This document shows, piece after piece, positions 3,188 through 64,000 of a stretch of DNA of 64,000 nucleotides. The notes beneath the pieces were generated by a model. It worked only from the letters and a program-made list of their open reading frames with translations. It did not search any database and had not been told where the DNA came from. The number at the start of each line of letters is the position of its first letter. Positions within the stretch are counted from its first letter, which is position 1. Source of the DNA: Actinomycetota bacterium (lineage in GTDB: Bacteria > Actinomycetota > CADDZG01 > WHSQ01). The position numbers and the translations under genes were made by a program. The DNA lies in the NCBI GenBank assembly GCA_013694625.1, contig JACDCD010000124.1:7539-71538 (forward strand), given 5' to 3'.

Positions 3188-4954
3188 GTGGTCGAGGTCA
3201 CTCCAGACGAGTTCGAACGCAGAATGGTGCAGTACGACCGGGAGGTCCAGGACCTTCAGGGGCAAGTCAAGCTGCTCGAAGAGGAACTGGGGTTGACGCG
3301 CCGCAAGCTGGAAGCGGCGCCCAGGCAGATCCACGCACTCGAAAAGCGGCTCTCAGAAGCCAACGCCCAGCTGAGCCTTGCCAAGGACAACAACGAGATT
3401 CTCGCCAGCACGCTCTCGGAAGCGCGCGACCGGCTTGCAACACTGAAAGAAGACATCGAAAAGCTGAGCCAGCCTCCCATGACCTACGGGGTCTTTCTGG
3501 AACCACAGGAGGACTCTACGGCCGACGTCTTCACCAGCGGGAGAAAGCTCAGGGTCGGGATAGCGCCCGACGTCGACCTGGATGCTGCAGAGCGCGGCCG
3601 GGAGGTCATGCTGAACGAGGCCATGGTCGTGATCGGGGTATGTGATTTCGAGGTCCAGGGCGAGGTGGTCACACTCAAGGAGACCCTCGACGGCAACACA
3701 CGCGCCCTGGTGGTCGGCCGGGCGGACGAGGAACGGGTCGTCGAGATCGCCGAGTCACTGAGGCACGAGAAGCTGAGAGCCGGCGACACCCTGCTGCTCG
3801 AGCCGAAGTCCGGCCACGTGCTCGAGAAGCTCCCTCGGCCCGAGGTCGAGGAGCTCATCCTCGAGGAAGTCCCCGACATCTCCTATGACGACATCGGTGG
3901 GCTCGACGCCCAGATCGAAGAGATTCGCGATGCGGTGGAGCTCCCGTTTCTCTACGGTGAGCTGTTCAAGGAGCATCAGCTCGAACCTCCCAAAGGGATC
4001 CTCCTCTACGGGCCGCCGGGATGCGGCAAGACGCTCGTCGCCAAAGCGGTCGCCAACTCGCTCGCCAGGCAGTTGGCGGCAAAGCTGGGCCATGAGAACC
4101 AACGTTCCTATTTCCTCAACGTCAAGGGTCCGGAATTGCTCAACAAGTACGTGGGGGAAACGGAACGCCAAATTCGGATGATCTTTCAGCGTGCCAAGGA
4201 GAAGTCGTTGGAGGGTGTGCCCATCATCGTGTTCTTCGATGAGATGGATTCTCTGTTCCGAACGCGAGGGTCGGGCATCTCGAGCGACATCGAATCAACC
4301 ATCGTGCCGCAATTGCTGGCCGAGATCGACGGCGTCGAGACACTCAAGAACGTCATCGTCGTCGGCGCATCCAACCGCGAAGACCTCATCGATCCTGCCA
4401 TTCTTCGGCCCGGGCGGCTCGATGTGAAAATCAAGATCGAGCGCCCCGACGAGCGCTCCGCGTGGGACATCTTCGCCAAGTACCTCAGCATCGACATACC
4501 CATTTCCGAGCAGCAGATCGAGCGTGCAGGTTCCAAGGAAGCCGCTGTTCAGGAGATGATCGAGGCAACTGCGCAGAAGATGTACTCAGAAGACGATGAC
4601 AACCGCTTTCTTGAGGTCACGTACGCTAACGGGGACAAGGAGGTCCTTTATTTCAAGGACTTTGCCTCCGGGGCGATGATCGAGAACATCGTGCGCCGAG
4701 CAAAGAAGACCGCCATCAAGCGGGCCATTGCCGGCGAGCCCAAAGGGATCAACCAACAAGACCTGATCTCTGCCATCCATCAGGAATACAAAGAGAACGA
4801 AGACCTGCCGAACACCACCAATCCCGACGACTGGGCGCGGGTATCGGGCAAGAAGGGCGAAAGGATCGTTTATATCCGCACGCTCGTAACCGAGCAGAAG
4901 GACGGCGAGGGCAGCCGTCAGGTAGAGCGGGTTCAAACCGGTCAGTACCTCTAG
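3188..4954 (+). CDS. mpa: Proteasome-associated AAA+ ATPase Mpa/ARC
   Basis: 588 aa. N-terminal coiled coil, Walker A GPPGCGKT, Walker B IVFFDEMD, and the C-terminal proteasome-docking motif ...TGQYL. Collinear with Mtb Mpa along its whole length. Confidence 0.95.
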
Positions 4955-4966
4955 GGTCAAAGGACA

Positions 4967-6448
4967 GTGGCCCTCCCGAAGATCTGCGGGATCGAGACGG
5001 AGTATGGCATTGCCCTGCGAGACGCGCGCGACTTCAACCCGATACTCACCTCGTCCCTGTTGATAAATGCCTACGCACAACCTGCTTTCAAACGGGTCAA
5101 GTGGGACTACGAGGAAGAGAGCCCGCTGCGCGACGCCCGCGGGTTCGACCGGGCGCCGGCAGAAGGGTCCATCGAGGAGGACTCCGGACTCGTAAACGTC
5201 ATCCTGCCGAACGCGGCCCGCTACTACGTCGATCACGCTCATCCCGAGTATTCGAGCCCCGAGTGCTCGAATCCGTTCGATGCGGTCGTGTGGGATAAGG
5301 CCGGGGAAATGATCCTCGAAGCTTCTATAGAGGCGGCCCGGACCATTCTCCCCGAAGGCCAAGACGTTCTGATCTACAAGAACAATTCCGATGGCAAGGG
5401 CAACTCGTACGGCTGCCATGAGAATTACCTGGTCGACCGCAGAACTCCGTTCACTTCTCTGGTGCGGCACCTAACACCGTTCTTCGTCACCAGGCAGATC
5501 TTCACCGGCGCCGGCAAGGTCGGGGCGGAGAATGGATCCGAAAGCGTCGACTATCAGGTGTCCCAGCGCGCTGACTTCTTCGAAGTCGAGGTGGGGCTCG
5601 AGACAACCTTCAAGCGGCCCATCATCAATACGCGTGATGAGCCGCATGCGGACCCGGAACGCTACCGAAGGCTCCATGTGATAGTCGCCGACTCGAACAT
5701 GTCGGAAATTGCGACTTTCCTCAAGCTGGGGACCACTGCGATCCTCCTCAAGATGATTGAGGACAACTTCATCTTCGACGATTTCTCGCTGCAATCGCCC
5801 GTGCAAGCCATGCGGGCGGTCTCACACGACCCGGCCTGCCGGAGGCCACTTGTTCTCGCCGACGGCCGCAAACTTTCGGCCGTGGACCTCCAGTGGGAGT
5901 ATCTACGACTGGCGAGAAAATACTCCCAGGAAGTCGCCAGCGACACCCCCACCGAGGCGGTGCTCGAACGGTGGGAGCAAATTCTCGAGGGCCTCGAGCG
6001 CGACCCCATGACACTTGTGAATCAGTTGGATTGGGTGGCCAAGCTCGAGGTGCTGAACGCCTACAGAGACAGGGACGGCCTGGGTTGGGACAGTTCCAAG
6101 CTGCGCCTCGTAGACCTTCAGTATCACGACGTCCGGCGCGCCAAGAGCCTTTACTGGAGGCTCGTCCATTCTGGGCGGATGGACCGCATCGTGCCGGATC
6201 ACGCAATCGAGCACGCGGTCGACCATCCTCCCGAGGACACACGCGCCTACTTCCGGGGGGAGTGCCTGCGGCGGTTTTCACCAAGGATCGTTGCTGCTTC
6301 ATGGGATGCGCTCATTTTCGACACAGGTGAGAACCCGCTGCGCAAGGTGCCGACCCTCGAACCCACGAGGGGGACGCGTCATCACGTTCAAGCTCTGCTC
6401 GACTCGAGCCCGGACGTAGCCGCTTTGGTCGGCAACCTGGGTGCCTGA
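4967..6448 (+). CDS. dop: Pup deamidase/depupylase Dop
   Basis: 493 aa. GIETEYG N-terminus and [25 protein letters not shown] motifs shared with PafA. It is longer than the PafA paralog (consistent with the Dop loop) and sits in the canonical mpa-dop-pup position. Confidence 0.88.
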   Translation: MALPKICGIETEYGIALRDARDFNPILTSSLLINAYAQPAFKRVKWDYEEESPLRDARGFDRAPAEGSIEEDSGLVNVILPNAARYYVDHAHPEYSSPECSNPFDAVVWDKAGEMILEASIEAARTILPEGQDVLIYKNNSDGKGNSYGCHENYLVDRRTPFTSLVRHLTPFFVTRQIFTGAGKVGAENGSESVDYQVSQRADFFEVEVGLETTFKRPIINTRDEPHADPERYRRLHVIVADSNMSEIATFLKLGTTAILLKMIEDNFIFDDFSLQSPVQAMRAVSHDPACRRPLVLADGRKLSAVDLQWEYLRLARKYSQEVASDTPTEAVLERWEQILEGLERDPMTLVNQLDWVAKLEVLNAYRDRDGLGWDSSKLRLVDLQYHDVRRAKSLYWRLVHSGRMDRIVPDHAIEHAVDHPPEDTRAYFRGECLRRFSPRIVAASWDALIFDTGENPLRKVPTLEPTRGTRHHVQALLDSSPDVAALVGNLGA

Positions 6449-6524: not shown

Positions 6525-6704
6525 ATGGCTGGAGAGCAAACGCGCAAGCCGCGGCCCAAGCGGGAAGACGCGGAGGCGTCGAAGGAGCCAACGACCGAGG
6601 CGCGGACGAAAGAGGTTGACGGCCTCCTTGACGAGATCGATGAAGTCCTGGAGGAGAACGCCGAGGAATTTGTTCGCTCCTACGTCCAGAAGGGCGGGCA
6701 GTAG
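6525..6704 (+). CDS. pup: Prokaryotic ubiquitin-like protein Pup (59 aa, C-terminal GGQ)
   Basis: Hand-translated: MAGEQTRKPRPKREDAEASKEPTTEARTKEVDGLLDEIDEVLEENAEEFVRSYVQKGGQ*. RBS GAGGTGAGGG precedes the ATG, and the stop lies 3 nt before the prcB ATG. Below the 60-aa cutoff of the ORF track. Confidence 0.92.
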   Translation: MAGEQTRKPRPKREDAEASKEPTTEARTKEVDGLLDEIDEVLEENAEEFVRSYVQKGGQ

Positions 6705-6707
6705 GTC

Positions 6708-7562
6708 ATGGGGGAGCCGATGGCCGAGGATCTTCTGCGCGCGCCGATCTTCGGGCCCGGCGCATCCTTCTCCGAGCTCGTGAAGAAAAGCGTTTCGCCG
6801 GCGGCCGGCGATGTCCGCATGGACAACCAACTGGTCGTGCCCGAGGGCACGACCGTGCTCGCCATACGTTACCGGGGCGGGGTCATCGTGGCGGGCGACC
6901 GTCGCGCAACCGAGGGCTTCCAAATCTCACATCGTTCGATCGAGAAGGTCTTTCCTGCCGATGACATGTCTGCGGTTGCCATCGCCGGGGCAGCCGGCCC
7001 CGCAGTCGAGGTGGTCCGGTTGCTCCAGACCGAGCTCGAGCATTACGAGAAGGTCGAAGGCGAGCGCCTCACCCTCGAAGGCAAAGCGAACAAACTGTCA
7101 CAGATGATCCGCGCCAATCTGCCCGCCGCAATGCAGGGATTGATTGTGGTGCCCCTCTTCGCAGGCTTCGACGAAGCCCGGAACATCGGTCGCATCTTCA
7201 AGTACGACGTCACCGGGGGCCGGTACGAAGAAGACGACTACCACGCTACGGGCTCGGGGGGAAAGGACGCTCGTTCTTCTCTCAAGAAGCGTTATAAGCA
7301 CGATCTGACGCGCGACGAGGTTGTGAAGATCGCCATCGAAGCGCTGTTCGACGCCGCCGACGAGGATGTTGGGACCGGAGGCCCGGACCTGGTGCGTGAT
7401 ATTTTTCCCACCGTAGTGTCCATAACGGTGGACGGGACGCTCGAGGTCCCAGAAGAGGATATACGCGCCTTGTTCAATGAATTGATCTCCGAACGGCGCG
7501 AGCAGATGCTTCTTCCCCATGAGCACACCGTTGATGTGAGACGACCGCAACGGGAGACCTGA
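6708..7562 (+). CDS. prcB: 20S proteasome beta subunit PrcB
   Basis: 284 aa. Propeptide followed by catalytic Thr in ...VVPEG/TTVLAIRYRGGVIVAGDRR. Confidence 0.95.
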   Translation: MGEPMAEDLLRAPIFGPGASFSELVKKSVSPAAGDVRMDNQLVVPEGTTVLAIRYRGGVIVAGDRRATEGFQISHRSIEKVFPADDMSAVAIAGAAGPAVEVVRLLQTELEHYEKVEGERLTLEGKANKLSQMIRANLPAAMQGLIVVPLFAGFDEARNIGRIFKYDVTGGRYEEDDYHATGSGGKDARSSLKKRYKHDLTRDEVVKIAIEALFDAADEDVGTGGPDLVRDIFPTVVSITVDGTLEVPEEDIRALFNELISERREQMLLPHEHTVDVRRPQRET

Positions 7563-7565
7563 GCC

Positions 7566-8249
7566 GTGCCGATGCCCTATTACGTCCCTCCGGAACAGCT
7601 CATGAAGGACAAGGCCGACTATGCCCGTAAAGGCATAGCGCGTGGGAAGTCCATCCTCGCGCTCGAGTACACCGACGGGATTTTCTTCATCGCCGAGAAC
7701 CCCTCGGCTACCCTCTACAAGATCTCCGAGATCTACGACCGAATCGCCTTTGCCGGGGTCGGTAAGTTCAACGAGTTCGAACAACTTCGCATCGGTGGAA
7801 TACGGCTTGTGGACCTGAAGGGCTATTCGTACTCGCGCGAGGACGTGACCGCCAAGTCTCTCGCGAATGCCTACTCGCAGAGCCTCGGCAACATCTTCAC
7901 GTCCGAGGTGAAACCGTACGAATGCGAGATCCTGGTGGCCTCCGTGGGGCCCACCACGAATGAGAACGAGCTATTTCACATCCTCTACGATGGATCGGTC
8001 ACCGACCGGCAGGGTTGGGTCGCCATGGGCGGGCAATCCGACCAACTCGGGGACGCGCTCACGGAGCGCTATCCCGGTGATCCCCCGGACCTGAAAGACG
8101 CATTCCGGCTGGGCGAGGAGATTCTGCATACTGTGGAGAACCGGTCCATGCCACCGGCGAACCTGGAGGTTGCAGTCCTCGACCGGACACGGGGCCGGCG
8201 CAAATTCCGCCGCCTGAGCGTCGCCCAGATCGAAGCAATCCTGGACTAG
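7566..8249 (+). CDS. prcA: 20S proteasome alpha subunit PrcA
   Basis: 227 aa. The N-terminus [29 protein letters not shown] is typical of actinobacterial alpha subunits. Starts 4 nt after prcB. Confidence 0.95.
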
Positions 8250-8263
8250 GGGGCTCTCCGAGA

Positions 8264-9616
8264 GTGGAGCACCGCATATTCGGGACCGAGAACGAGTACG
8301 GCGTCACCTGCACGTTCAGAGGACAGCGGCGACTCTCGCCCGACGAGGTGGCGCGCTATCTCTTTCGCCGGGTCGTTTCCTGGGGGCGCTCGTCCAACGT
8401 CTTTCTCGAGAACGGAGCGCGGCTCTATCTCGATGTCGGCTCCCACCCCGAATACGCGACGCCCGAGTGCGATTCGATCTACGACCTCGTGGTCCACGAC
8501 AAAGCCGGCGAACGCATCCTGGAGAGTCTGCTAAAGGCAGCGGAGGCGCGTTTGCGCGAAGAGGGCATTTCCGGCGACATCTTCCTGTTCAAAAACAACA
8601 CCGACAGCGCAGGCAATTCGTACGGCAGCCATGAGAACTACCTGGTGTCCCGCTATGGGGAATTCGGCCGGCTTGCGGAGGTCATGATTCCCTTCCTCGT
8701 GACCCGGCAAGTCTTCGCCGGCGGGGGCAAAGTTCTTCAAACTGCGCGTGGCGCGATGTTCTGCATCTCACAACGGGCCGAGCACATCTGGGAAGGCGTT
8801 TCTTCTGCCACGACCCGATCGCGGCCGATAATCAACACGCGTGATGAACCACATGCAGACGCAGAGAAGTACCGGCGTCTCCATGTGATCGTGGGTGACT
8901 CGAACATGAACGAGTGGGCTTCCTATTTGAAGGTCGGCAGCACCGCGCTGCTGCTGCGCATGGTCGAAGAAGGCGTTCAGATCAGAGACATGACCCTCGA
9001 GAATCCCATCAGGGCTATCCGCGAGATCTCCCACGACACCACCTGCCGCCGGAAGGTGCGATTGGCCAACGGCCGCGAGGTCTCGGCTCTCGACATGCAA
9101 ATGGAGTATTTGGACAAGGCTCTGCGATGGGTTGAGCAGCGCGATGATCACGTTCTCAAAGAAGTGGCGGCGATGTGGGAGCACGCCCTGGATGGATTGG
9201 CCGGCGATCAAGCCTCCCTCCGCACTCAGGTCGACTGGATCGCCAAACGTGATCTCGTCGAGAAGTACCGGGAGCGTCATGGACTTTCTCTTGCCCATCC
9301 GCGCATCGCGCTGGTCGACCTGTCGTATCACGACGTCAACCGCAAGAGGGGCCTGTACTACCTGCTGGAAAGGCGCGGGTTGGCGGAGCGCATCTGCGAC
9401 GAGCAGGACATACAAACGGCCACACAGCAGCCTCCCCAGACAACCCGCGCCAAGCTACGAGGCGAATTCATACGAGCCGCCAAGCGCAAGCGCCGGGATT
9501 TCACCGTCGATTGGGTCCACCTCAAGCTCAACGATCAGGCACAACGGACGGTGCTGTGCAAGGATCCGTTCCGCTCCACGGACGAGCGGGTGGCCAAGCT
9601 GATCGCTTCCCTCTGA
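8264..9616 (+). CDS. pafA: Pup-protein ligase PafA
   Basis: 450 aa. [13 protein letters not shown]..., paralogous to Dop but ~40 aa shorter, with [13 protein letters not shown] and [12 protein letters not shown] motifs. Confidence 0.9.
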
Positions 9617-9617
9617 C

Positions 9618-10688
9618 GTGGCCGCCTGGGCGGAAGGCCGGATCTCTGAAGTGCTCGAAGTAACGAGGGATCTGATGCGCGCGCATGCAACCGTCGAAGG
9701 GGAGGAGATCAGCGCCGTCGGCTTTCCCTCCATGCTGGGGCCGCTGAGCGTCGGAGACCGCGTCGTCCTGAATGTCACCGGGCTCGAGCTCGGCCTCGGC
9801 ACAGGAGGCGACGGCTTCATCCTGTGGAATCTGGACGGGGACGGAGCCCCCGGACCAGGGGAGGGGCACATCATCAAGCTTCGGTATACCCCCTGGCAGA
9901 CGGAGGTCGCTGCGGCCGAGGCCCCGGAGAGCCCCCACCATGAGGCTCTCAGCCAACTTGAGACAGTCTCGGGCATGCCGGTCATCGTTTGCGGCCTGCA
10001 TTCTCAGGTGGCCGGCGCGGTCGCCGGAGTCAGGGAGGCAGCACCCGACTCCCGCATTGGCTATCTCATGACCGATGGAGCGGCGCTTCCTCTGGCATGG
10101 AGCAGACTCGTCGCATCTCTGCGGTCTGCCGGGCTGATCGATGTCAGCTGTACGTCGGGTCATGCATTTGGCGGAGACCTCGAAAGCATCAATGTGTACA
10201 GCGGCCTGGCCGCCCTGCGCGCAGCCGGCGCCGCAGACGTCGTCGTTGCGGCCATGGGGCCCGGGGTTGTCGGGAGCGCAACGCGTTTGGGCTTTTCCGG
10301 GATGGAGGTCGGCGAATTGCTGGATGCGGCCGGTGCCCTGGGAGGTCACGCCGTAGCATGCCTCCGGATGTCGTTCTCCGACCCTCGACCGCGTCACCAG
10401 GGCGTCAGCCACCACAGTCTCACCGCGCTTCGGCTCGCCACCGCAAGGAGGGCGACGATAGCGGTTCCGCTGCTGCCCGAGGAGCCCGAGCGTCTGGTGC
10501 AGACAAGCCTTGCCGAGGCGGGTCTCGGCGAACGACACGAGTTGGCTTTCGCAGATGGACGACCGGGGCTCGAACTGCTTCGCCGCAAACAGATCGAGGT
10601 GACGTCCATGGGCCGGACATTGGATGAGACGCCCGAGCTCTGGGTGGCGGCGGCAGCGGCAGGCAGAGTGGCCACCAGGTGGTTGTGA
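9618..10688 (+). CDS. Conserved hypothetical protein, possibly DUF3866-like, embedded in the pupylation operon
   Basis: 356-aa ORF with a GTG start 1 nt after the pafA stop. Gly-rich motifs GLGTGGDG and AAMGPGVVGS, and HIIKLRYTPWQ, which I associate from memory with DUF3866. No recognisable catalytic family. Confidence 0.7.
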   Translation: MAAWAEGRISEVLEVTRDLMRAHATVEGEEISAVGFPSMLGPLSVGDRVVLNVTGLELGLGTGGDGFILWNLDGDGAPGPGEGHIIKLRYTPWQTEVAAAEAPESPHHEALSQLETVSGMPVIVCGLHSQVAGAVAGVREAAPDSRIGYLMTDGAALPLAWSRLVASLRSAGLIDVSCTSGHAFGGDLESINVYSGLAALRAAGAADVVVAAMGPGVVGSATRLGFSGMEVGELLDAAGALGGHAVACLRMSFSDPRPRHQGVSHHSLTALRLATARRATIAVPLLPEEPERLVQTSLAEAGLGERHELAFADGRPGLELLRRKQIEVTSMGRTLDETPELWVAAAAAGRVATRWL

Positions 10689-10757
10689 ACCGAACCACTC
10701 AGCGGCAGCCCTCCCTGGGCTACCAACTCCGGTATGGCGCGTGGGTACCCTGGCCTT

Positions 10758-11735
10758 ATGCGACGCATTGAGCGGCTGATCAATCTCATTGCTGCCTTGC
10801 TCGAGGCGCGCCGCCCGCTTACGGCCCAGGACATCAGAGACACGATCTCGGGCTATGACCAGCTCAACCACGACGCCTTCCGCCGGGCTTTCGAGCGTGA
10901 CAAAGATGCGCTGCGGTCGATGGGTATACCCCTCGACACGGTACCGGCCGACAAGATGCTGGATGGCCGCGCCGACGGTTACATCATCGCCAAATCACGC
11001 TATTACCTTCCCGAGCTCGACCTGAAGCCGGACGAGCTTGCGGCACTCAGGATCGCCGCCCAGGCGATACTTGGCGGCGCCACCGACGCCGAAAGCGGGT
11101 TGATGAAACTGTCGGTCGATTCAGGCGGCGATCCGGCGCCGGGCCCCCGCGTTGTCTGGGGCGCAGATCTGGCTGCCGAGCAGCCGTCGCTCGGTGCGTT
11201 CTATTCGGCGCTGTTGGATCACAAACCCGTCGAGTTCGGATACCAGACGGCGGGGGCGGCCGCGGCTTCCAGGCGCAGGGTCTACCCCTACGGTCTTGTC
11301 CACCGCCGAGGCCACTGGTACGTCGTAGGACAGGACATCGACAAGGATGACGTGCGCGCCTTCAAGGTCGCACGCGTCTCGGGCGCCATAACGCGTATGG
11401 ACGGCAGCTATTCGATCCCTTCTTCGTTCGATGCCGCCGCACACGTCGGAGGAGAAGCGTGGGCGATCGGACCGGAGGCATCCGACGCCACCCTCGTGCG
11501 TTTCGATGCTTCCATGCGGTGGTGGGTCGAGCAGAACATGCGGGGTCTGCCCACGTCGCCGGGGGCGGAGGGCGCACTTGACGTCGAGGTGCCGGTGGCG
11601 AATGTAGATGCGCTCATCTCGTGGATCATCGGTTTCGGCTCCGAGGTCGAGATTCTTGCGCCTGAATCGGCGCGCCGCCGGCTCATCGAGCATCTGGCCC
11701 CATATCTCGAGCAACATCTAGAGCAGCCCGCGTGA
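10758..11735 (+). CDS. pafB: PafB (HTH-WYL transcriptional regulator, PafBC heterodimer)
   Basis: MRRIERLINLIAALLEARRPLTAQDIRDTISGY winged-HTH N-terminus and a WYL-type middle region (HRRGHWYVVG). An alternative ATG lies at 10734. Confidence 0.8.
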   Translation: MRRIERLINLIAALLEARRPLTAQDIRDTISGYDQLNHDAFRRAFERDKDALRSMGIPLDTVPADKMLDGRADGYIIAKSRYYLPELDLKPDELAALRIAAQAILGGATDAESGLMKLSVDSGGDPAPGPRVVWGADLAAEQPSLGAFYSALLDHKPVEFGYQTAGAAAASRRRVYPYGLVHRRGHWYVVGQDIDKDDVRAFKVARVSGAITRMDGSYSIPSSFDAAAHVGGEAWAIGPEASDATLVRFDASMRWWVEQNMRGLPTSPGAEGALDVEVPVANVDALISWIIGFGSEVEILAPESARRRLIEHLAPYLEQHLEQPA

Positions 11736-12745
11736 GCCCGGAAGACAAAGGACGACTGGGAAGGCGCCTGGGTCGCATCCTCGTCCTGCTCCCGTACGCC
11801 ATCCGCAACCCGGGCATCAGTGTCGATGAATTGGCACAGAGATTCGGTATCGCTCGCCGGGAGCTGATCGACGACCTCAACCTCGTGTTCCTCTGCGGCC
11901 TGCCCGGTTATGGACCGGGTGATCTGATCGACGTGAGCCTCGAAGAGGATCGTGTCTACGTCGACATGGCCGACTATTTCAGCCTTCCGTTGAGGCTCAC
12001 CCCCACAGAGGCACTTGCCCTCTACGCTGGAGGGGAGGCAATCGCGGCCCTGCCGGGAATGGAGGAGGCAGAAGCACTGAGGCGCGCCCTGGGCAAACTC
12101 GGTCGCGCACTTGGGCCGGGTGCGGGCGGGGATACCAGCGGCATCAAAGTCGAGCTGGATGCTGGACCTCAGGAGCACCTCGAGAGCATTCAGAAGGCTC
12201 TTCATGAACGGCGCAGGCTGCGGTTGGAGTATTTCTCTGCGTCGCGTGGCGAGATGACCCAGCGCACGGTTGACCCCTGGGGCCTCGTTGCCGCCCTCGG
12301 ACGTTGGTATGTGGTCGCGTATGACCACCGAACCCGGGACGAGCGCATGTTCCGCACCGACAGGATCAAGACAGTCGAGGTGCTCGATGAGCTTGCGGAT
12401 GTGCCCACGGATTTCGATCCGGACGAGTACCGCGGCGCGTGGTCGGGCAGGAGGGCGCCGGATGTCGTGAGCTTCGAGATCTCACCCGCCGCCGGACGCT
12501 GGTTCGAGGACTACTACCCGGTCACGCGCTCGGCGATTCTCGACGATGGTTGGAGTGCGATCGAGATCGCTACCAGCGGGGAGGTCTGGGCAGCGACACT
12601 GTTGTTGCGTCTGGGTAAGGACGTGCGCAACGTGAGGCCCCAAGTTGTTGCCGACCACGCCCGTCGGCTGGCAACAGCCCTGGCACAACGGCATCGGTCC
12701 CCTGAGATCGGCGTCGCGCAGGGAAGCGCGGGGCTAAACCTTTAG
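11732..12745 (+). CDS. pafC: PafC (HTH-WYL transcriptional regulator)
   Basis: GTG start overlaps the pafB stop (GTGA). ILVLLPYAIRNPGISVDELAQRFGI HTH and WYL-type RWYVVAYDHR. Confidence 0.8.
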   Translation: MSPEDKGRLGRRLGRILVLLPYAIRNPGISVDELAQRFGIARRELIDDLNLVFLCGLPGYGPGDLIDVSLEEDRVYVDMADYFSLPLRLTPTEALALYAGGEAIAALPGMEEAEALRRALGKLGRALGPGAGGDTSGIKVELDAGPQEHLESIQKALHERRRLRLEYFSASRGEMTQRTVDPWGLVAALGRWYVVAYDHRTRDERMFRTDRIKTVEVLDELADVPTDFDPDEYRGAWSGRRAPDVVSFEISPAAGRWFEDYYPVTRSAILDDGWSAIEIATSGEVWAATLLLRLGKDVRNVRPQVVADHARRLATALAQRHRSPEIGVAQGSAGLNL

Positions 12746-12794
12746 GTCAAAGCGTCGATACAGAACGCATGTTGCAAATAGAAGAAGGCCCCCG

Positions 12795-13145
12795 ATGAAC
12801 ACCACCATCAAGGCCACCTGCCCGGCATGCGGCGAGGTCGCCCTGACCTCGGAGGACGTAGTCCTTCGGATCGGCCCGGCCACGTCGACAAACAGCTATG
12901 GGTTCTCGTGTCCGCGATGCACCCAGTTCGTGACCAAGACCGCCGATGAGCGGGTCGTGAGGCTCTTGCTTTCCGGAGGCGTGCGTCCCATACCGATTCA
13001 TGTTCCTGCAGAGGTCCTGGAGTACCGAAGCGGCCCGCCGATCAACCACGACGATATTCTCGCTCTTCACGAGTTGCTGGACGGCGACAACTGGTTCGAG
13101 GAGCTGAGCGGCCGCCGGAGCGCAGCCGACCCCCCCACCGTTTAA
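12795..13145 (+). CDS. Hypothetical small protein with CxxC...CxxC zinc-ribbon
   Basis: 116 aa. RBS GAAGAAGG precedes the ATG. CPACGEV...CPRCTQF. No recognised family. Confidence 0.55.
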   Translation: MNTTIKATCPACGEVALTSEDVVLRIGPATSTNSYGFSCPRCTQFVTKTADERVVRLLLSGGVRPIPIHVPAEVLEYRSGPPINHDDILALHELLDGDNWFEELSGRRSAADPPTV

Positions 13146-13194
13146 GGGCCGCTCCGCAACCACTCAGCGCCACCCATTTGCCCGCCCCTGCCTC

Positions 13195-13200
13195 TAGACT
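13195..13200 (+). promoter_or_regulatory. Candidate -10 box TAGACT giving a leaderless tatA mRNA
   Basis: TAGACT (TAnnnT class) ends 6 nt before the A of the tatA ATG (13207). There is no RBS in between. Confidence 0.4.
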
Positions 13201-13206
13201 GCGCCT

Positions 13207-13641
13207 ATGCCACAGTTAGGCCCACTCGAGATCATCGCCGTAGCGGTCATCGCCTTGATCGTCTTCGGGCCCCACCGGCTCCCGGAAATTGCCAGAACTC
13301 TCGGCCGCGTGATCTCCGAATTCAAGCGTCAGGCCACCGATCTCACGAGCGAGTTCAAGACCGGTCTCGACCTGAATCTGGATGATGACGATGACGATGA
13401 TGAGGATATTCCCGAGCCCGTGTCCACCGGCCTCTACGCCACTGCGGATGATGCCGAGGGGGACCCGGCGGAGCCTCCCCTCACCGCCGGCGCCGAGGCG
13501 GCCGAGCCTCCTGCCGCGATGAACAACGGTGCGCCCGTTCAAGTGCCCCAGGAGCCCCTGGAGGCAGCCACCGGGTCGGAGTCCTCCGGGAGACCTTCTG
13601 GTGAGACCGGAGATCCGGCCGAACGGGAGAGGGACGGATGA
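13207..13641 (+). CDS. tatA: Twin-arginine translocase subunit TatA/E with long acidic C-terminal tail
   Basis: MPQLGPLEIIAVAVIALIVFGPHRLPEIARTLG is the hallmark TM plus amphipathic helix. Tail contains the LDDDDDDDED run. Confidence 0.9.
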   Translation: MPQLGPLEIIAVAVIALIVFGPHRLPEIARTLGRVISEFKRQATDLTSEFKTGLDLNLDDDDDDDEDIPEPVSTGLYATADDAEGDPAEPPLTAGAEAAEPPAAMNNGAPVQVPQEPLEAATGSESSGRPSGETGDPAERERDG

Positions 13642-14454: not shown

Positions 14455-15165
14455 ATGCCGATCAAAGGAAAGAAAAAGCCCGCAAGTCGTGGAAGTCGTT
14501 CCCGTCGGGCGCCGGCAGCTGCTCCCCGCCCACTTGCGACCGGTCGACGGCGCACCCCCTGGCACAGAACTCCTGCAGGAAGGGTGGTCGCCGCGATCAC
14601 GGTCCTTGCGATGTTGAGCCTGGTGATCGGACTGGTGGTGAACGCGCGCTCGAGCGGGAACGCTACGGTCGAGCGCCGGGAAGCCCTCGAACGTTATGCG
14701 GGTGAGATGCGGGCGCTGCTACAACGGGTGGCCCCTCCCGCCGGCGCGGTCGCAGCCTTGGCAAGCGTCCCGGCCGGTAAGGTCGTCAAGTCGGCAGAAG
14801 CCGACGCCACCGGGTGGGTCAAGAGCTTTCAGGAGGCAGCGACCGAGGCTGGGGCGATAACGCCGCCGGTTGAGGTCGCGCCGGCGCACGGCTTGTTCCT
14901 GGATTCGTTACTGCTGTATGCAAGTTCGGCGCAGACCTATGGGCTGGCCCTCGATCTCCAAGGCAGGGTGCAGTCCGGGATCCTGATTCAGGCGTCCGAG
15001 CAGCGGGCGCGTGCGGAATCGGTGTGGACCAATGCCGTGGGAGTGGTGGATCGAAGTCTCGCCGACGCCGGGGCGGAACCCTCGGGATTGGCGCCGCCCA
15101 GCGCCGGGGGGCCGGCGCAGATCCCTCCACCGGAAGGCGAGAAGAACGCCGGCGAAGACAACTAG
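14455..15165 (+). CDS. Hypothetical single-pass membrane protein with basic N-terminus
   Basis: 236 aa. Lys/Arg-rich N-terminus, one hydrophobic helix (VVAAITVLAMLSLVIGLVV), and an Ala-rich extracytoplasmic part. Confidence 0.5.
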   Translation: MPIKGKKKPASRGSRSRRAPAAAPRPLATGRRRTPWHRTPAGRVVAAITVLAMLSLVIGLVVNARSSGNATVERREALERYAGEMRALLQRVAPPAGAVAALASVPAGKVVKSAEADATGWVKSFQEAATEAGAITPPVEVAPAHGLFLDSLLLYASSAQTYGLALDLQGRVQSGILIQASEQRARAESVWTNAVGVVDRSLADAGAEPSGLAPPSAGGPAQIPPPEGEKNAGEDN

Positions 15166-37375: not shown

Positions 37376-38161
37376 GTGAGTGACGTCCCGGACCCTGTGT
37401 CTGGGGAGGGACGGGTGCTCGTGATAGTGCCCACGTTCAATGAGCGGGCCAGCATCCAGGAGGTGGCCCGGCTCGTGCTCGCCGCCGGCCCCGCCTTGGA
37501 CCTGCTGGTGGTGGACGACTCCTCTCCCGACCGGACGGCCGAAGCGGTACGAGAATTTGCGTCGTCGACCGGGGGCCGCCGGGTCCATCTGATCGAGCGG
37601 GCCGGCAAGCTGGGCCTCGGGACCGCCTACATTGATGGTTTCCGATGGGCGCTCCGGCGCGGCTTCGGGGCGGTCGTGGAGATGGACGGCGACCTCTCCC
37701 ACGACCCACGGGTCGTGCCCCGTCTGGTCGAGTCCCTGCGCCATGCCGATCTCGTGATCGGCTCCCGCTACGTGTCCGGCGGAGAGGTTCGTAACTGGAG
37801 CCTGCTCCGGCGCACCCTGTCCCTGACGGGGAATCTCTATGCACGGATTGCGCTCGGATTCGAGGTCCGAGACTCGACGAGCGGCTTTCGGGCCTATCGA
37901 TCCGCCTGGCTCGACGCCGACTTTCCGGAGTCGACGTCGGAGGGATATGCGTTTCAGATAGAGATGACCCGCCGGATCCATCGTTCGGGAGGCCGCATTC
38001 TGGAAATTCCCATAGTGTTCACCGAACGGAGCACCGGCCGCTCAAAGATGTCGCGCCGGATTGTGGTCGAGGCGACCTGGTCGGTTGCCTGGTGGGCGCT
38101 CCGGGACCGGTTCGACGGGCGCAGCCCGAACGAGGCCGCACCCCCCTTCAGTCGCCCATAA
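37376..38161 (+). CDS. ppm1: Polyprenol-phosphate mannosyltransferase (Ppm1/DPM1-like GT2)
   Basis: VLVIVPTFNE, VVDDSSPD, GLGTAYIDGF and EMDGDLSHDP. Confidence 0.85.
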   Translation: MSDVPDPVSGEGRVLVIVPTFNERASIQEVARLVLAAGPALDLLVVDDSSPDRTAEAVREFASSTGGRRVHLIERAGKLGLGTAYIDGFRWALRRGFGAVVEMDGDLSHDPRVVPRLVESLRHADLVIGSRYVSGGEVRNWSLLRRTLSLTGNLYARIALGFEVRDSTSGFRAYRSAWLDADFPESTSEGYAFQIEMTRRIHRSGGRILEIPIVFTERSTGRSKMSRRIVVEATWSVAWWALRDRFDGRSPNEAAPPFSRP

Positions 38162-47817: not shown

Positions 47818-47892
47818 TCGGGACGGCCGGATTCGAACCGGCGACCCCTGGTCCCCCAGACCAGTGCGCTAACCAAGCTGCGCCACGTCCCG
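47818..47892 (-). tRNA. tRNA-Pro (anticodon GGG)
   Basis: Hand-folded cloverleaf. Acceptor stem CGGGACG/CGTCCCG, D stem GCGC/GCGC and anticodon stem CTGGT/ACCAG. The anticodon loop is CTGGGGG. The T arm is GCCGG-TTCGAAT-CCGGC. No encoded CCA. Confidence 0.9.
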
Positions 47893-58441: not shown

Positions 58442-58809
58442 CGCTCCTGGCGAAGTTGGCGAAGGAGAACTGAATCGGCGCCGCGCGTCTCGAAGTCCTC
58501 GAGGATGTAGGCGAGGGCCGACCGGACCATCCGTCCCCGGTCGGCGGCGACACCGTGCTCGGCCCGCAAGTTCAACCGTGCTCGTTCGAGCGCCATCAGG
58601 TCCTGGGCGGTGCAGTAGAAGGTGACCTTCTCGTCGTGTTTCGGGCCCTTCTTGATCCCCCCCGTAGTAGAGGCGTCCTCGGCGACCTGGAGACTTGTCG
58701 ACTTGTCGACTTGTAACCCCGGTCGGTCCGAAGGTTGGGCCCGGCGTTCCTGGGCCGTGGTGGGTCGGAACAGCTCGTCAGCTCCAGGCAGGCTGGCGCG
58801 GGGAGACAC
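58438..58809 (-). CDS. Small protein with disordered N-half and ribbon-helix-helix-like C-half (possible ParG/CopG-type partner of ParA)
   Basis: 123 aa. [43 protein letters not shown] fits a strand-helix-helix pattern. Overlaps the parA 3' end by 32 nt. Confidence 0.55.
58694..58717 (-). repeat. Tandem 8-bp repeat GTTACAAG-TCGACAAG-TCGACAAG inside the small RHH-like ORF
   Basis: The + strand reads CTTGTCGA CTTGTCGA CTTGTAAC. It encodes [11 protein letters not shown]. Confidence 0.5.
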
Positions 58810-59587
58810 GGTCCATCACCTCCCGCGCAAGCTTGCGGTAGGCGGCCGTTCCGGGCGACGCCGGTGCATAGCTCAGGATCGGTTCGCCCGACACCGGGGC
58901 CTCCGCGAAACGGATGGTCTTTCGGATCACCGTGTCGAACACAACGCCGCCGAACGCCTCCCTCACCCTCTCGAGCACCTCCTTGCTGTGAAGCGTGCGC
59001 ACGTCGTACATCGTCGCCAGTATCCCGTCCACCTCCAATGATGGATTCAAGCGCTGCCTGATCCGTTCGATCGACTCCATCAGGTTGGCCATGCCCCGCA
59101 GGGCGTAGTACTCACACTCGAGTGGCACGAGCACGCCATGAGCCGCCGTCAGGGCATTGACCGTAAGAAGCCCGAGGGAGGGAGGACAGTCCACAAGAAT
59201 AAGGTCATAGTTAAGGGTTAGGGGTTCCAGGATCCGTTTGAGGCTCTGCTCCCGCGCCACCTCCTGCACGAGCATGAGCTCCGCCGCTGCCAGGTCGACG
59301 TTGGAGGGAAGGAGGTCCACTCCGGGGACGACGGAGCCCAGGACCACGTCGTGGACGTCGCAGGACGGGTCCAGCAGCGCGTTGTACACCGAGACTTCGA
59401 GACCTCCGGGCTCGATCCCCAAGCCGAGTGCGCAACCGCCCTGGGGATCGAAATCGACCAGGAGGATCCGTTGATCGAGCTCGGCGAACGCCGCCGCCAG
59501 ATTGATGGCCGTGGTGGTCTTACCCACCCCGCCTTTCTGATTGGCGAAGGCGATGATGCGAACGGTCCCTGGTCCTTGCGCCTCCAC
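58778..59587 (-). CDS. parA: ParA/Soj-family partition ATPase (Rv1708-like)
   Basis: Deviant Walker [14 protein letters not shown] 59587 with a GGGAGG RBS is preferred over the track start at 59740. Confidence 0.87.
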
Positions 59588-59617
59588 AGGCCTCCCACCG
59601 GCTCGAGAAAGTGCCCA

Positions 59618-59641
59618 CTTGTCGACAAGTCCGCTTGTCCC
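59618..59641 (-). repeat. Unit array GGGACAAG-CGGACTTG-TCGACAAG containing the perfect palindrome ACTTGTCGACAAGT (59617-59630)
   Basis: Lies 30-55 nt upstream of the parA GTG. Candidate operator or centromere-like site. Confidence 0.5.
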
Positions 59642-59724
59642 CAGGTGAGGGTAATGGAAGCGGGCGCCGACCACAAGGGTGTTTAGCGAGTCCGTTCCCC
59701 CGAACTTGCGTCGCCGGGGGACAA

Positions 59725-59748: not shown

Positions 59749-59783
59749 TCAGGCGCCTAGTAGACTGTTGTCCCAGGCGTTGA

Positions 59784-61091: not shown

Positions 61092-62075
61092 TCAGTGGTT
61101 GCGGGCGCGGGGGTGCGACGTCAGGTAAACCTCTCTGAGCCGACTCTGACTCACCAGGGTGTAGATCTGGGTGGTGGTCAGGCTTGCATGACCCAGGAGC
61201 TCCTGCACGACGCGGATGTCGGCTCCGGCATCAAGCATGTGGGTGGCGAATGAGTGTCTCAGCGTGTGCGGGGATACCGCCTCGCCGAGCCCGGCCACGC
61301 GCGCATATCCCTTGAGTAGCTTCCAGGCGCCCTGCCGGGTGAGCCGCCCTCCCCGAGCGTTCAACCACAGTGCTCCGGAGGATGCGCCGGCGGGGGCTCG
61401 CGTCGCCAGGTCCGGGCGGGTGATGGTGAGATAGGCGCCCACCGCCGTACAGGCGATGCGTCCGAGGGGAACGCGCCGGGCCTTCCCACGCTTAGGGGTT
61501 CTCACGAGCACCGAGCCTTCCTCCAGATCGAGATCGTCGACGTCGAGGCTCACGAGCTCTGAGATGCGAAGTCCCGCACCGTAGAGCGTCTCGAGGATGG
61601 CGCTGTCCCTCCTGCCCATGGGAGCCTCCGACGGCAGTTCGATGAGCTTGACCACCTGCTCCACCGCGATCGCCTTCGGGAGCGACAGCGGGCGTTTCGG
61701 CGCGCCGACCTTGGCAGTCGGGTCCACGGAGAGCTGGCCTTCACGGACGAGCCACCGGTAGAAGACCCTTACGGTAACGAGCATCCGGGCCACCGTCGCC
61801 GGACGGTAGGCCCGGCGCGCCGGCGGTCGGCCAGATCTGAGCCGCGCCAGATACTCCGTGACCTGCTCTGGAGCTACCCTGCCGGCGTCGACGCCGGCGA
61901 GGCCGCAGAACTCCCTCCACCTGCCCAGATCACGCCGGTACGACGAGATGGTGTTGTCCGACAGTCCCCGTTCTATCTGTGAGTGGACCATGAACTCGTC
62001 GATCCATCGATCGAGAGGCTCCAGACGGGAAGCGGCGTCAGATGAGATCGTCGATGGAAACCGACTCGAGGCCAT
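61092..62075 (-). CDS. xerD: Tyrosine recombinase XerD
   Basis: N-terminal core-binding ERGLSDNTISSYRRDL. Catalytic HTLRHSFATHML...LGHASLTTTQIYT. The start may overlap the ald 3' end, so the exact start is uncertain. Confidence 0.9.
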   Translation of the reverse strand: MASSRFPSTISSDAASRLEPLDRWIDEFMVHSQIERGLSDNTISSYRRDLGRWREFCGLAGVDAGRVAPEQVTEYLARLRSGRPPARRAYRPATVARMLVTVRVFYRWLVREGQLSVDPTAKVGAPKRPLSLPKAIAVEQVVKLIELPSEAPMGRRDSAILETLYGAGLRISELVSLDVDDLDLEEGSVLVRTPKRGKARRVPLGRIACTAVGAYLTITRPDLATRAPAGASSGALWLNARGGRLTRQGAWKLLKGYARVAGLGEAVSPHTLRHSFATHMLDAGADIRVVQELLGHASLTTTQIYTLVSQSRLREVYLTSHPRARNH

Positions 62076-63150
62076 GGGCTTCGCCGACGGGGGCGTAGGT
62101 CAACGACCCCCGATACGCATTGACGCCTTCCGCCAGCGCGGGATCACGTTTCACCGCGTCCACGAAGCCCCTGCCGGCCAGTGCCGACACGTACGGCAGC
62201 GTTGCATTGGTGAGGGCATACGTGGATGTGTGTGGAACGGCGCCGGGCATGTTACCCACGCAGTAATGGACGACGTCGTGCATCACAAAAGTGGGATCAG
62301 AGTGCGTCGTCACAGTCGATGTCTCGAACGATCCCCCCTGATCGATCGCGATGTCGACCGCAACCGCCCCGGGCCGCATCTCTTCGACGATGTCCTCCGT
62401 GACGACCTTGGGGGCCAAGGCCCCGGGCACGAGTACGGCGCCGATCACGAGGTCCGCGGATACAACCGCCTCCTCGACCGACAGCCGGTTCGACGCAATC
62501 GTGAGAATCCTTCCTTTGTGTATCTGGTCGATGTCACGAAGCTTGTTGATGTTGGTGTCGAGCACGACGACCTCGGCCTCCATGCCCTGGGCGATCCACG
62601 CCGCGTTCATCCCCGCCATCCCTGCGCCGATGATCACCACGCGCGCCGGCCGGACTCCCGAGACGCCCCCCATGAGGACACCCAGCCCACCATTGCCGCG
62701 TTCGAGATAGTGAGCCCCGACATGGGGCGCCATGCGTCCGGCGACCTCGCTCATGGGGGCCAGCAGCGGCAGGGAACCGTCCGCCAACTCGACTGTCTCG
62801 TACGCAACCGCAGTGGTGCCGGCCTCCAAGAGAGCTTCGGTGACATCTTTCGCAGCAGCAAGGTGAAGATAGGTGAAGAGGACGAGGCCATCGCGCAAAT
62901 GGTGGAACTCCTCGGGTATCGGCTCTTTGACCTTCAAGACCATGTCGGCGTCTGCGAAAAGGGTGTCCGCGTCGGCGACGATCGACGCACCGGCACGCTC
63001 GTACTGTTCATCGGAGATGCTGGAGCCGGAGCCGGCCGATCTCTCGATGAGCACCTCATGATCATCGACCACGAGCTCGCGGACACCTGAAGGTGTTATC
63101 GCGACTCGGTACTCGTTGTCCTTGACCTCTTTCGGCACCCCCACCTTCAT
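62038..63150 (-). CDS. ald: Alanine dehydrogenase
   Basis: MKVGVPKEVKDNEYRVAITPSGV and NAD motif VVIIGAGMAGMNAA. Confidence 0.92.
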   Translation of the reverse strand: MKVGVPKEVKDNEYRVAITPSGVRELVVDDHEVLIERSAGSGSSISDEQYERAGASIVADADTLFADADMVLKVKEPIPEEFHHLRDGLVLFTYLHLAAAKDVTEALLEAGTTAVAYETVELADGSLPLLAPMSEVAGRMAPHVGAHYLERGNGGLGVLMGGVSGVRPARVVIIGAGMAGMNAAWIAQGMEAEVVVLDTNINKLRDIDQIHKGRILTIASNRLSVEEAVVSADLVIGAVLVPGALAPKVVTEDIVEEMRPGAVAVDIAIDQGGSFETSTVTTHSDPTFVMHDVVHYCVGNMPGAVPHTSTYALTNATLPYVSALAGRGFVDAVKRDPALAEGVNAYRGSLTYAPVGEAHGLESVSIDDLI

Positions 63151-63160
63151 GTTCGGAACC

Positions 63161-64000
63161 CTACTTCAAGTCGACTGCCGAGAACGTATCGCTCTTTGCA
63201 CCGGTAACGGTTAGAACCCGGCGTTCAATTGCAGCTCCGATGAAATCATGGAACAAGGGATGCGGACGGTCGGGTCGGCTCTTGAACTCGGGGTGGAACT
63301 GGCTGCCCACGAACCAAGGATGGCCGGTCAACTCGATCATCTCGACGAGGGTGCCGTCGGGTGACTCGCCCGCCGCAACAAGACCGGCGCGCTCGAGACG
63401 CGTTCTCCACCGGGGATTTACCTCGTAACGGTGACGATGGCGCTCGTAGATCAACTCGCGGTTATATGCCAGTGCGGCTTTGGAGCCGGGGTTGAGGCGG
63501 CACGGGTAGGCGCCGAGACGCATCGTTCCGCCGAGCGCGCCCAGGTCCTGGCCCGCAAGGATATCGATGACCGGGTACTCCGTAGAGCTGTCGAACTCAG
63601 TGGAGTTTGCGCCGTCGAGCCCGGCGACATGACGCGCGAACTCGATTACGGCGCACTGCAATCCGAGGCAGAGCCCCAGAAACGGCACCTGCTGCTCGCG
63701 CGCCCAGCGCACCGCCTGAACCTTTCCTTCGATGCCACGAACGCCGAACCCGCCCGGCACGAGAATGCCGTCGAGACTTCCCAGAGTTTCCTGCAGGTCG
63801 TCGGTTTCAAGGCTGTCGGACGGTATCCACGCGATGTCCACCGGAGCCTCGTGCGCAAAGCTGGCGTGTTTCAACGCCTCGACAACCGACAGATAGGCAT
63901 CGGGCAGGCGCACGTACTTCCCGATGAGACCAATACGCAATGCGCCTCCGCCGGCCGGCGAGAACCCGGGGGCAGGCGCCGAGATCGTCTTATCGATGCG
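63161..64000 (-). CDS. pyrG: CTP synthase, C-terminal glutamine-amidotransferase part (5' end beyond window)
   Basis: GLCLGLQC catalytic Cys and HRHRYEVN. The frame stays open to position 64000, so the gene is truncated by the window edge. Confidence 0.9.

Follow-up and report, generated by a model that had tools for sequence, protein, structure and literature searches.

A conserved DUF3866 gene in the pafA-pafBC slot of an actinomycetote genome, probably a relocated housekeeping gene

The gene between pafA and pafB

We examined a stretch of 64,000 nucleotides (the window) from the genome of an Actinomycetota bacterium (assembly GCA_013694625.1, contig JACDCD010000124.1). Its Pup-proteasome locus contains an open reading frame (ORF) encoding 356 amino acids that starts one nucleotide after the stop codon of pafA, the gene for the Pup ligase, and precedes pafB. 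An initial annotation of the sequence had described this arrangement, and we confirmed the position of the ORF together with the identities of PafA (TIGR03686), the PafB-like protein and PafC. The ORF is a real, conserved gene of the DUF3866 family, and a housekeeping role, brought here by relocation, is more probable for it than one dedicated to pupylation. The locus contains the following features.

9618..10688, + strand: DUF3866 family gene (PF12982), 356 aa, GTG start, AlphaFold2 model
9614..9620, + strand: junction of the pafA stop and the DUF3866 start, TGA-c-GTG (TGA 9614-9616, spacer base 9617, GTG 9618-9620)
8264..9616, + strand: pafA, Pup ligase (Pup_ligase E = 1.2e-166; TIGR03686 701 bits against a cutoff of 551)
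10734..11735, + strand: pafB-like regulator with WYL and WCX domains, 45 nt 3' of the DUF3866 stop
11732..12745, + strand: pafC, with HTH_PafC, WYL and WCX domains; its start overlaps the pafB stop
3188-4954, + strand: mpa/arc, Pup-proteasome locus, 5' of pafA
4967-6448, + strand: dop, Pup-proteasome locus, 5' of pafA
6525-6704, + strand: pup, 59 aa, C-terminus GGQ
6708-7562, + strand: prcB, Pup-proteasome locus
7566-8249, + strand: prcA, Pup-proteasome locus

With a spacer of a single nucleotide and no Shine-Dalgarno-like purine run seen on inspection of the final ~25 nt of pafA, the junction fits translational coupling to pafA, which the sequence makes likely. The gene is probably co-transcribed with pafA as well. 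A scan of positions 8000-13300 for promoters and terminators found none between pafA, the DUF3866 gene and pafB, with counts not above the shuffled expectation. This result is compatible with a single transcript but does not prove one.

The plus-strand coding is real and not a chance ORF, since the product matches PF12982 with E = 9.5e-111 across the profile. A longer antisense ORF (9528..10871, 447 aa) spans the whole gene; long antisense ORFs are common in GC-rich DNA. We rejected the antisense and overlapping alternative-frame ORFs as genes, as none has a Pfam match even at E <= 1. The NCBI entry for the identical protein (P0001; cluster member MBA2273856.1), labelled 'DUF3866 family protein', has 337 aa and begins at Met20 (ATG 9675). 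However, homologues that are 88% identical align to all 356 residues, from residue 1, and residues 4-15 form a confidently predicted beta-strand. GTG 9618 is therefore the better start, and the deposited protein is probably 19 residues short. The GC content of the gene (0.66-0.67) is near that of pafBC (0.63-0.65) and a little above that of pafA (0.60-0.61). Considering this composition and the single actinobacterial clade in the neighbour-joining tree described below, recent horizontal transfer is unlikely.

Family membership and predicted structure

The window protein matches PF12982 with 370.5 bits (gathering score 25 bits), its residues 33-349 aligning to profile positions 2-318 of 318. 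The stretch HIIKLRYTPWQ (residues 84-94) had been tentatively linked to DUF3866 in the initial annotation, and the full-profile match bears this out. No other stretch of the family is as well conserved, and automatic selection chose this one as a search pattern. We identified 4668 homologues among the scored candidates, and the family comprises ~1500 clusters at 50% identity. The window protein has a single domain, and typical homologues are 354-370 aa in length. It is a typical member of a catalogued, uncharacterised family.

The family alignment consists of the window protein and 105 representatives that are 33-60% identical to it. There are 16 invariant and ~40 near-invariant columns among these 106 members, rich in Gly, His, Arg, Asp and Ser and also containing Glu. 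The window protein keeps all of the invariant columns and nearly all of the near-invariant ones, with the exception of S220, which is mostly Thr in the family. All of the family motifs are present: GLGTGG; GH..K.RYTP.Q; LHS; GGD.E; GPG..G; R...D.R.RH.G.SHH; and MGR. The three stretches singled out initially (GLGTGGDG, residues 59-66; AAMGPGVVGS, residues 211-220; and HIIKLRYTPWQ) fall on invariant or near-invariant columns. Judged from the alignment, such a column pattern is typical of a catalytic or tight ligand-binding site and atypical of a scaffold, in keeping with the earlier description of the protein as enzyme-like.

No catalytic family had been recognised initially, and none emerged from Pfam, NCBIfam, PDB sequence and profile, or Foldseek searches. 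NCBIfam has no model for the window protein, phmmer found no solved relative in the PDB, and a profile search against the PDB returned one spurious match only (24 residues, E = 2.5). When all 106 aligned members were compared with Pfam at a permissive threshold (E <= 10), no second family turned up in more than one of them. We found no paper on DUF3866 function in the literature; the sole mention is in a table of essential genes of C. difficile.

The AlphaFold2 model of the full chain has a predicted local distance difference test score (pLDDT) of 96.5 and a predicted template-modelling score (pTM) of 0.94, and it divides into two parts.

9618..9917, + strand: predicted N-terminal OB-like beta-barrel, residues 1 to ~100 (AlphaFold2, Foldseek, conservation)
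9915..10685, + strand: predicted C-terminal alpha/beta body, residues ~100-356 (modelled alone, pLDDT 97.6)

The barrel strands in the model comprise residues 4-15, 20-26, 29-35, 48-52, 66-71 and 85-87. The barrel carries the invariant loop G59-L-G-T-G-G64 (9792-9815) and the motif G83-H-I-I-K-L-R-Y-T-P-W-Q94 (9864-9899). A search of the whole chain with Foldseek against the PDB and BFVD yielded local OB-domain matches only and no full-length match, with template-modelling (TM) scores of 0.35 or less. The local superpositions cover ~86 aa, with probabilities of 0.99-1.0 and root-mean-square deviations (rmsd) of 3-5 A, and include the anticodon-binding N-domain of LysRS, the exonuclease VII (ExoVII) large subunit and TiaS, as well as S1 in the viral library. 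As modelled, the barrel superposes on OB domains over five strands, and its fold appears to be OB-like.

The body consists of alternating strands and helices around a parallel sheet, and nearly all of its conserved residues lie just past the C-termini of strands. In its N-terminal half these are H128-S129, D153, G185-G186-D187-x-E189 and G214-P-G-V-V-G219 (10257-10274). The C-terminal half contributes R250...D255-x-R257-x-R259-H260-x-G-x-S264-H265-H266 (10365-10415) and M331-G-R333. Searched alone with Foldseek, the body matched SIMIBI-class P-loop folds only, with probabilities of 0.8-0.9, TM scores of 0.38-0.43 and E >= 3.7e-3. The best matches, at 0.43 and below a TM score of 0.5, were MeaB, FleN and the NG domain of the signal recognition particle (SRP).

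The SIMIBI-class proteins (MeaB/ArgK, MinD/ParA/MipZ/FleN, HypB, the SRP GTPase, the amidoligase domain of CTP synthase, and FolC/Mur ligases) share with the body a parallel sheet and conserved residues at the strand C-termini. However, the corresponding loop in the window protein is C-G-L-H-S, not GxxxxGK[ST], and no sequence-level relationship was found. In the model a strand at residues 121-124 is followed by C-G-L-H128-S129 and then by a helix at 130-141. We rejected identity as a P-loop NTPase, as the protein is without a Walker A motif, and the weak likeness to the SIMIBI class is better regarded as a resemblance in topology than as membership. Neither Pfam nor Foldseek brought up a family that binds NAD(P) or FAD. 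The Gly-rich loops had been read initially as a nucleotide- or phosphate-binding fold. The loops are indeed conserved, and this putative assignment is reasonable; GPGVVG comes after a strand, but no helix adjoins it directly.

Genomic context, relocation and fusion proteins

Homologous loci were collected by scanning one genome per GTDB species with patterns taken from the family alignment. The Pup-locus proteins of the window were then compared by BLAST with the 80 best loci and two metagenome contigs. Genes in the related loci were called by a crude longest-ORF method, and linkage to Pup genes was scored within 10 kb of the DUF3866 gene.

Conservation of the neighbourhood was a check that the initial annotation had proposed, and pafA proved to lie within 10 kb in all 32 sampled loci from Pup-bearing Actinomycetota (unclassified metagenome-assembled genomes (MAGs) close to the window, Acidimicrobiia, and others). 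It is upstream on the same strand in 31 of the 32, and 29 of these 31 leave -1 to +68 nt (median 4) between the pafA stop and the DUF3866 start, which upholds the initial suggestion of probable co-transcription and coupling with pafA. Two loci (L016, L022) have an insertion of 1.7-1.9 kb between the two genes. One Actinomycetes MAG is rearranged (L082, 7242-17436), and there the DUF3866 gene stays beside pafBC, with pafC and pafB on the minus strand. In this rearranged locus the gene is divergent and ~750 nt from pafBC, an ORF of 504 aa without a Pfam match overlaps the DUF3866 stop, and pafA is found another 5 kb along, in minus orientation. The DUF3866 gene and pafB are mostly separated by -4 to ~+100 nt. 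Three Acidimicrobiales loci (L052, L074, L084) keep pafA and the DUF3866 gene together and have no pafBC downstream, so the gene is tied more tightly to pafA than to pafBC. The pafA-DUF3866 arrangement is old and stable in this branch of the actinomycetotes.

The slot itself varies among Actinobacteria. It is empty in mycobacteria, where pafA directly precedes pafB-pafC as had been stated initially, whereas two FKBP isomerases fill it in Streptomyces and Arthrobacter (PMC2588565, PMC8223512). The latter, FKBP-type peptidyl-prolyl isomerases (Iyer et al. 2008, PMC2588565), occupy the same position as the DUF3866 gene but belong to an unrelated family. Reviews of the Pup-proteasome locus make no mention of a DUF3866 gene. 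pafA-pafBC-tatAC-helY forms a frozen synteny block in which tatAC and helY are equally conserved, though they are no Pup factors. Conserved position is consequently weak evidence of function.

Several further features of the region are conserved to differing extents. An ORF of 116 aa between pafC and tatA (12795-13145, + strand) encodes two CxxC-type zinc-ribbon-like motifs, with sub-threshold Pfam zinc-ribbon matches only. It is found by tblastn at the same position in nearly all Pup-linked loci, from the window lineage to Acidimicrobiia, at 35-69% identity, and represents an uncharacterised conserved small protein of the paf-tat region. An ORF of 236 aa 3' of tatC (14455-15165, + strand) has no Pfam match, is rich in Ala, Pro and Arg, and contains a single hydrophobic stretch; at least 7 related loci have a comparable ORF after tatC. 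Three loci carry an Endonuclease_7 (PF02945) gene between pup and prcB (L001 6200-6673, L002 6026-6436, L084 1815-2339). The window has none there, pup ending at 6704 and prcB starting at 6708. The sole match at the Rfam gathering score in the 64-kb window is a tRNA gene (47818-47892, - strand).

The family is not restricted to organisms with Pup, since 50 of the 80 reference-genome loci are free of Pup genes over 10 kb on either side. These 50 belong to Bacillota (mostly Clostridia), Limnochordales, Armatimonadota, Fervidibacter and Coriobacteriia. In Clostridia the gene typically occupies the block spoIVB - spo0A - SteA - MctB/SteB-like - GT2 - GT4 - (PepT-like M20) - DUF3866 - NUDIX ... spoIIM - xerD - deoB - pdp, where GT2 and GT4 are glycosyltransferase families. 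The commonest partners in the 50 Pup-less loci are XerD (35), GT4 (32), SteA (31), NUDIX (31), GT2 (30) and MctB-like proteins (27), and an M20 partner occurs in 13 loci by cluster count or 15 by tblastn. SteA was identified by NF040608 (529 bits) and the PepT-like M20 by TIGR01883. The NUDIX partner best matches NudE/YffH-AdpP/NudF/NudK, and the Bacillota neighbours also include a TIGR00375-family protein.

The clostridial proteins, including CDR20291_1057 of C. difficile, resemble the window protein in their full-length hidden Markov model match, length (355-356 aa) and possession of all invariant motifs, at 34-48% identity. Their genes differ in context, following spo0A-SteA-SteB-like-GT2-GT4 and preceding NUDIX, whereas the window gene lies between pafA and pafB without those partners nearby. 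Both CDR20291_1057 and the cluster CDR20291_1053-1057 appear in a list of essential genes, and C. difficile cells swell and form chains when genes of the 1053-1057 cluster are knocked down (PMC12157513). SteA and SteB are established cell-separation factors in Corynebacterineae. When the partners in one such locus (L017) were used as tblastn queries, SteA, the MctB-like protein, GT4, M20 and NUDIX had no match in the window; the only matches were an unrelated GT2 (37376-38161), XerD and DeoB.

A third context is seen in Armatimonadota, where DUF3866 follows genes for a mannitol-dehydrogenase-like protein, a GNAT protein (Acetyltransf_9), a double-SIS-domain protein and a PepT-like M20. It is Pfam-annotated in L050 and partially shared by L057 and L059. 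This context suggests amino-sugar or peptide-like metabolism, unlike the clostridial and Pup contexts.

We compared the residues of Pup-linked copies (n=33, the 32 loci and the window) with those of Pup-less copies (n=50). All 45 of 45 conserved positions are kept equally in both groups, and only two positions discriminate between them, 130 (Q vs M) and 249 (L vs P). The initial annotation had proposed the protein as a candidate accessory factor of Pup ligation, depupylation or the PafBC response. This is not supported as the core function, the family and its conserved residues being shared with Pup-less bacteria. A lack of linkage to pafA had been named at the outset as evidence against that proposal, and here the picture is divided: the family is widespread without Pup in another conserved context, but all sampled Pup-bearing actinobacterial loci are linked to pafA/pafBC. 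Compared with the dedicated components Dop, PafA, Mpa and Pup, DUF3866 fits by linkage but fails on phyletic restriction and on Pup-linked sequence specialisation.

The window also preserves what appears to be the site from which the gene moved.

61092..64000, - strand: 'empty' ancestral site, comprising the C-terminal part of pyrG (stop 63161, running off the window), a 10-nt gap, ald (63150..62038) and xerD (62075..61092)

This site belongs to the block pyrG(partial)-ald-xerD-deoB-parA (58778-64000, - strand), which lies 50 kb from the paf operon and is syntenic with the DUF3866-bearing block of Coriobacteriia and Bacillota. The Coriobacteriia block, GT4 - pyrG - M20 - DUF3866 - ald - xerD, has no Pup genes at the locus. 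The window has the same order with the M20-DUF3866 slot between pyrG and ald empty, which argues that the gene was relocated into the paf operon. In a neighbour-joining tree (midpoint-rooted, without support values) all actinobacterial copies form one clade that includes two Pup-less Coriobacteriia. The simplest history has the gene relocating from the pyrG-xerD block to the pafA/pafBC slot before Acidimicrobiia and the window lineage diverged. There is no NUDIX gene between pyrG and xerD in the window, unlike in M. tuberculosis (Rv1699-Rv1701).

Several members of the family are fused to other domains. Clean DUF3866-NUDIX fusions occur in four mutually distant proteins (P0202, P0209, P0210, P0324) and mirror the neighbouring positions of the two genes in 31 of the 50 Pup-less loci. 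They point to a nucleoside-diphosphate-linked substrate or product, and we regard them as the strongest functional clue. In Acidimicrobiales, a complete signal peptidase I (S26) is attached to DUF3866 by way of an acidic, Pro-rich linker and a transmembrane helix. Such fusions were found in at least 5 clusters from four data sources (P0296, P0298, P0301, P0303, P0307; sequences inspected for P0303 and P0307), and their predicted layout shows the DUF3866 domain tethered at the cytoplasmic face of the membrane. One S26 fusion directly follows pafA in a locus where pafBC is absent (L084 6798-8480), and in another locus (L083) S26 is encoded by a gene of its own after pafC.

On a JGI metagenome contig DUF3866 and PafB are seamlessly fused, with pafC as the next gene (P0274, L083 349-2265). 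A second in-frame fusion of the two, with a 22-residue linker, comes from an Acidimicrobiia MAG (L066 9890-11941) and may be an indel error of long-read assembly. Other apparent fusions were rejected. In P0272, P0291 and P0335 (ENA), seeming fusions of DUF3866 with PafB or PafC, genuine sequence alternates with out-of-frame Arg/Pro-rich stretches, and the Pup_ligase-DUF3866 entries P0277, P0326, P0332 and P0353 are fragmentary domain matches and probable artefacts. We did not use three entries of 900-1200 aa (P0279, P0294, P0302), which had partial domain matches or were not inspected. Suspect predicted proteins from long contigs of ENA assemblies (P0272, P0291, P0335, P0326, P0332) create false PafA/DUF3866/PafB/PafC fusions, a caution for automated Rosetta-stone analyses. 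A single family member (P0174, 446 aa) carries an N-terminal PilZ domain, a receptor domain for cyclic di-GMP, ahead of DUF3866.

Proposed function and alternatives

Pup-linked copies are likely to perform the same chemistry as Pup-less ones, based on the shared conserved positions, the tree clade with Coriobacteriia and the synteny of the empty slot. It is quite probable that the core biochemical function is independent of Pup. Taken as a whole, we lean modestly towards an orthodox, relocated DUF3866 ortholog, a Pup-independent enzyme that acts on a nucleoside-diphosphate-linked ligand in a pathway of the cell envelope or cell separation. The protein would be soluble, cytoplasmic and enzyme-like, its active site lying between the loops of the OB-like barrel (GLGTGG; GH..K.RYTP.Q) and the C-terminal strand ends of the large alpha/beta body. 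H128/S129, D153, GGD.E, GPG..GT, R250, D.R.RH, SHH and R333 would line the body side. The Gly/Arg/His-rich composition of this conserved site suggests that it binds a phosphate- or pyrophosphate-bearing ligand, and the substrate or product may be a nucleoside-diphosphate-linked compound such as ADP-ribose or a nucleotide sugar. The proposed role in the envelope or cell separation is based on the GT4/GT2/SteAB/M20 neighbours, the membrane-tethering fusions, and the essentiality listing and phenotype in C. difficile. Ancestrally the family belongs to a Gram-positive housekeeping block (SteA...xerD in Clostridia; pyrG-ald-xerD in Coriobacteriia). On the simplest history the gene left the pyrG-xerD block for the pafA-pafBC slot, where it is tightly coupled to pafA. 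In this genome it would be co-expressed with PafA and PafBC and have no catalytic role in pupylation.

Several observations weigh against this interpretation. The nucleoside-diphosphate ligand and the envelope role are suggested by gene context alone, and the window and the Pup-linked loci are without nearby NUDIX, GT4 or M20 genes, so that the proposed pathway partners are not seen there. The 80 genome loci were the best matches to the query, so they do not sample the family at random. On the structural side, Foldseek returned no PDB match to the body above a TM score of 0.43, and the protein has no GxxxxGK[ST] motif and no Lys-Ser/Thr P-loop anywhere. G214-P-G216-V-V-G219 does follow a strand (208-213), but the next helix begins at residue 227 and does not directly adjoin it. 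Finally, the pafA-DUF3866 junction is kept across very divergent lineages (DUF3866 ~45-50% and PafB ~35% identical). This conservation, the retention beside pafA without pafBC and the seamless fusion in P0274 are together more than a neutral passenger would predict.

We consider it unlikely that the protein is a lineage-specific accessory factor of Pup or PafBC, recruited after the relocation. Such a factor might target PafA, Pup or pupylated lysines, or it might make or remove a nucleotide-derived molecule sensed by the PafBC WYL domains. It would account for the gap of -1 to +68 nt kept in 29 of 31 loci from Acidimicrobiia to the window lineage, for the presence of all 33 copies from Pup-bearing Actinomycetota (the 32 loci and the window) within 10 kb of pafA, for the gene staying by pafA without pafBC in L052, L074 and L084, and for the DUF3866-PafB fusions, seamless in P0274/L083 and in-frame in L066. 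In addition, the WYL domain is described as a nucleotide-sensing module (PMC10693628), and DUF3866 is linked to a nucleotide-diphosphate hydrolase. However, the same residues are conserved in Pup-less organisms with just two discriminating positions, Coriobacteriia keep DUF3866 without Pup genes at the locus, and the frozen pafA-pafBC-tatAC-helY synteny has low functional specificity. The slot is also filled by unrelated FKBP genes in Streptomyces and Arthrobacter and vacant in mycobacteria, most apparent PafA/PafB/PafC fusions are frameshift artefacts, and the one in L066 may be an assembly indel. The one clean DUF3866-PafB fusion (P0274) is indirect evidence of an interaction, and a lineage-specific regulatory link to PafBC is possible.

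In its most novel form, DUF3866 would be a working part of the PafA/PafBC module in Acidimicrobiia and the window lineage, making or destroying an ADP-ribose-like molecule that is sensed by the WYL domains or modulates PafA; this we regard as distinctly unlikely. If true, the response to DNA damage and pupylation would be coupled to NAD or nucleotide-sugar metabolism and to that of the envelope, and such a role would have left its trace in the conserved translational coupling to pafA and in the seamless fusion of DUF3866 with PafB.

It is also distinctly unlikely that DUF3866 is directed at nucleic acids, with the OB fold binding RNA or single-stranded DNA and the body processing a nucleic-acid end or adduct together with a NUDIX partner. 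The target could be an ADP-ribose- or NAD-type cap or lesion, and the proximity of xerD, EndoQ-like genes and PafBC would reflect DNA or RNA maintenance. The best local matches of residues 1 to ~90 are all nucleic-acid OB domains (LysRS, ExoVII, TiaS, S1 and the DNA-ligase OB), and the Bacillota neighbours include the TIGR00375-family protein and XerD. The ExoVII large subunit (XseA) is the top Foldseek match in both libraries, the PDB and BFVD (E = 5.7e-4 and 5.9e-6), and like DUF3866 it places an N-terminal OB fold ahead of an alpha/beta region. However, the ExoVII matches have TM scores of 0.14-0.20 (global TM 0.14-0.23, rmsd >20 A) and drop out of the best 50 once the search is confined to the alpha/beta body. 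DUF3866 also lacks a coiled coil and shows no similarity to XseA in sequence. The conserved residues of the barrel lie mostly in Gly-rich loops that probably face the catalytic body, rather than on a basic or aromatic nucleic-acid surface. The commonest neighbours after XerD (35) are GT4 (32), SteA (31) and NUDIX (31), which indicate membrane and glycosyl-transfer functions and NUDIX rather than nucleases, and the membrane-tethered S26 fusions suit an envelope role better.

A non-catalytic scaffold or assembly factor of the SteAB/cell-division machinery, in the paf operon by genomic accident, is very improbable: co-location with SteA and SteB-like genes in 27-31 Bacillota loci and the lack of a match to any known catalytic family would agree with it, but 16 invariant and ~40 near-invariant Gly/His/Arg/Asp/Ser/Glu columns at strand ends across ~35%-identical sequences, the NUDIX hydrolase fusions, which imply shared metabolism, and the persistence of the gene in Acidimicrobiia and Armatimonadota loci without a nearby SteA argue against it.

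We did not find in the searchable literature the conserved insertion at the Pup locus, the evidence for relocation, the Rosetta-stone link to NUDIX or a description of the fold. For the pupylation field the gene is mostly a cautionary case, being a conserved operon partner of pafA in Acidimicrobiia and allied lineages whose chemistry is nevertheless common to Pup-less bacteria; any role in pupylation or with PafBC would have arisen secondarily, by recruitment within this lineage. The DUF3866 family is sizeable and combines a confident model that is unmatched as a whole in the PDB, very well conserved residues resembling an active site and an ortholog listed as essential in C. difficile. The Rosetta-stone link to NUDIX (ADP-ribose or nucleotide sugars), the SteAB/GT2/GT4/M20 envelope neighbourhood and the documented relocation to the pafA operon provide handles on this family.

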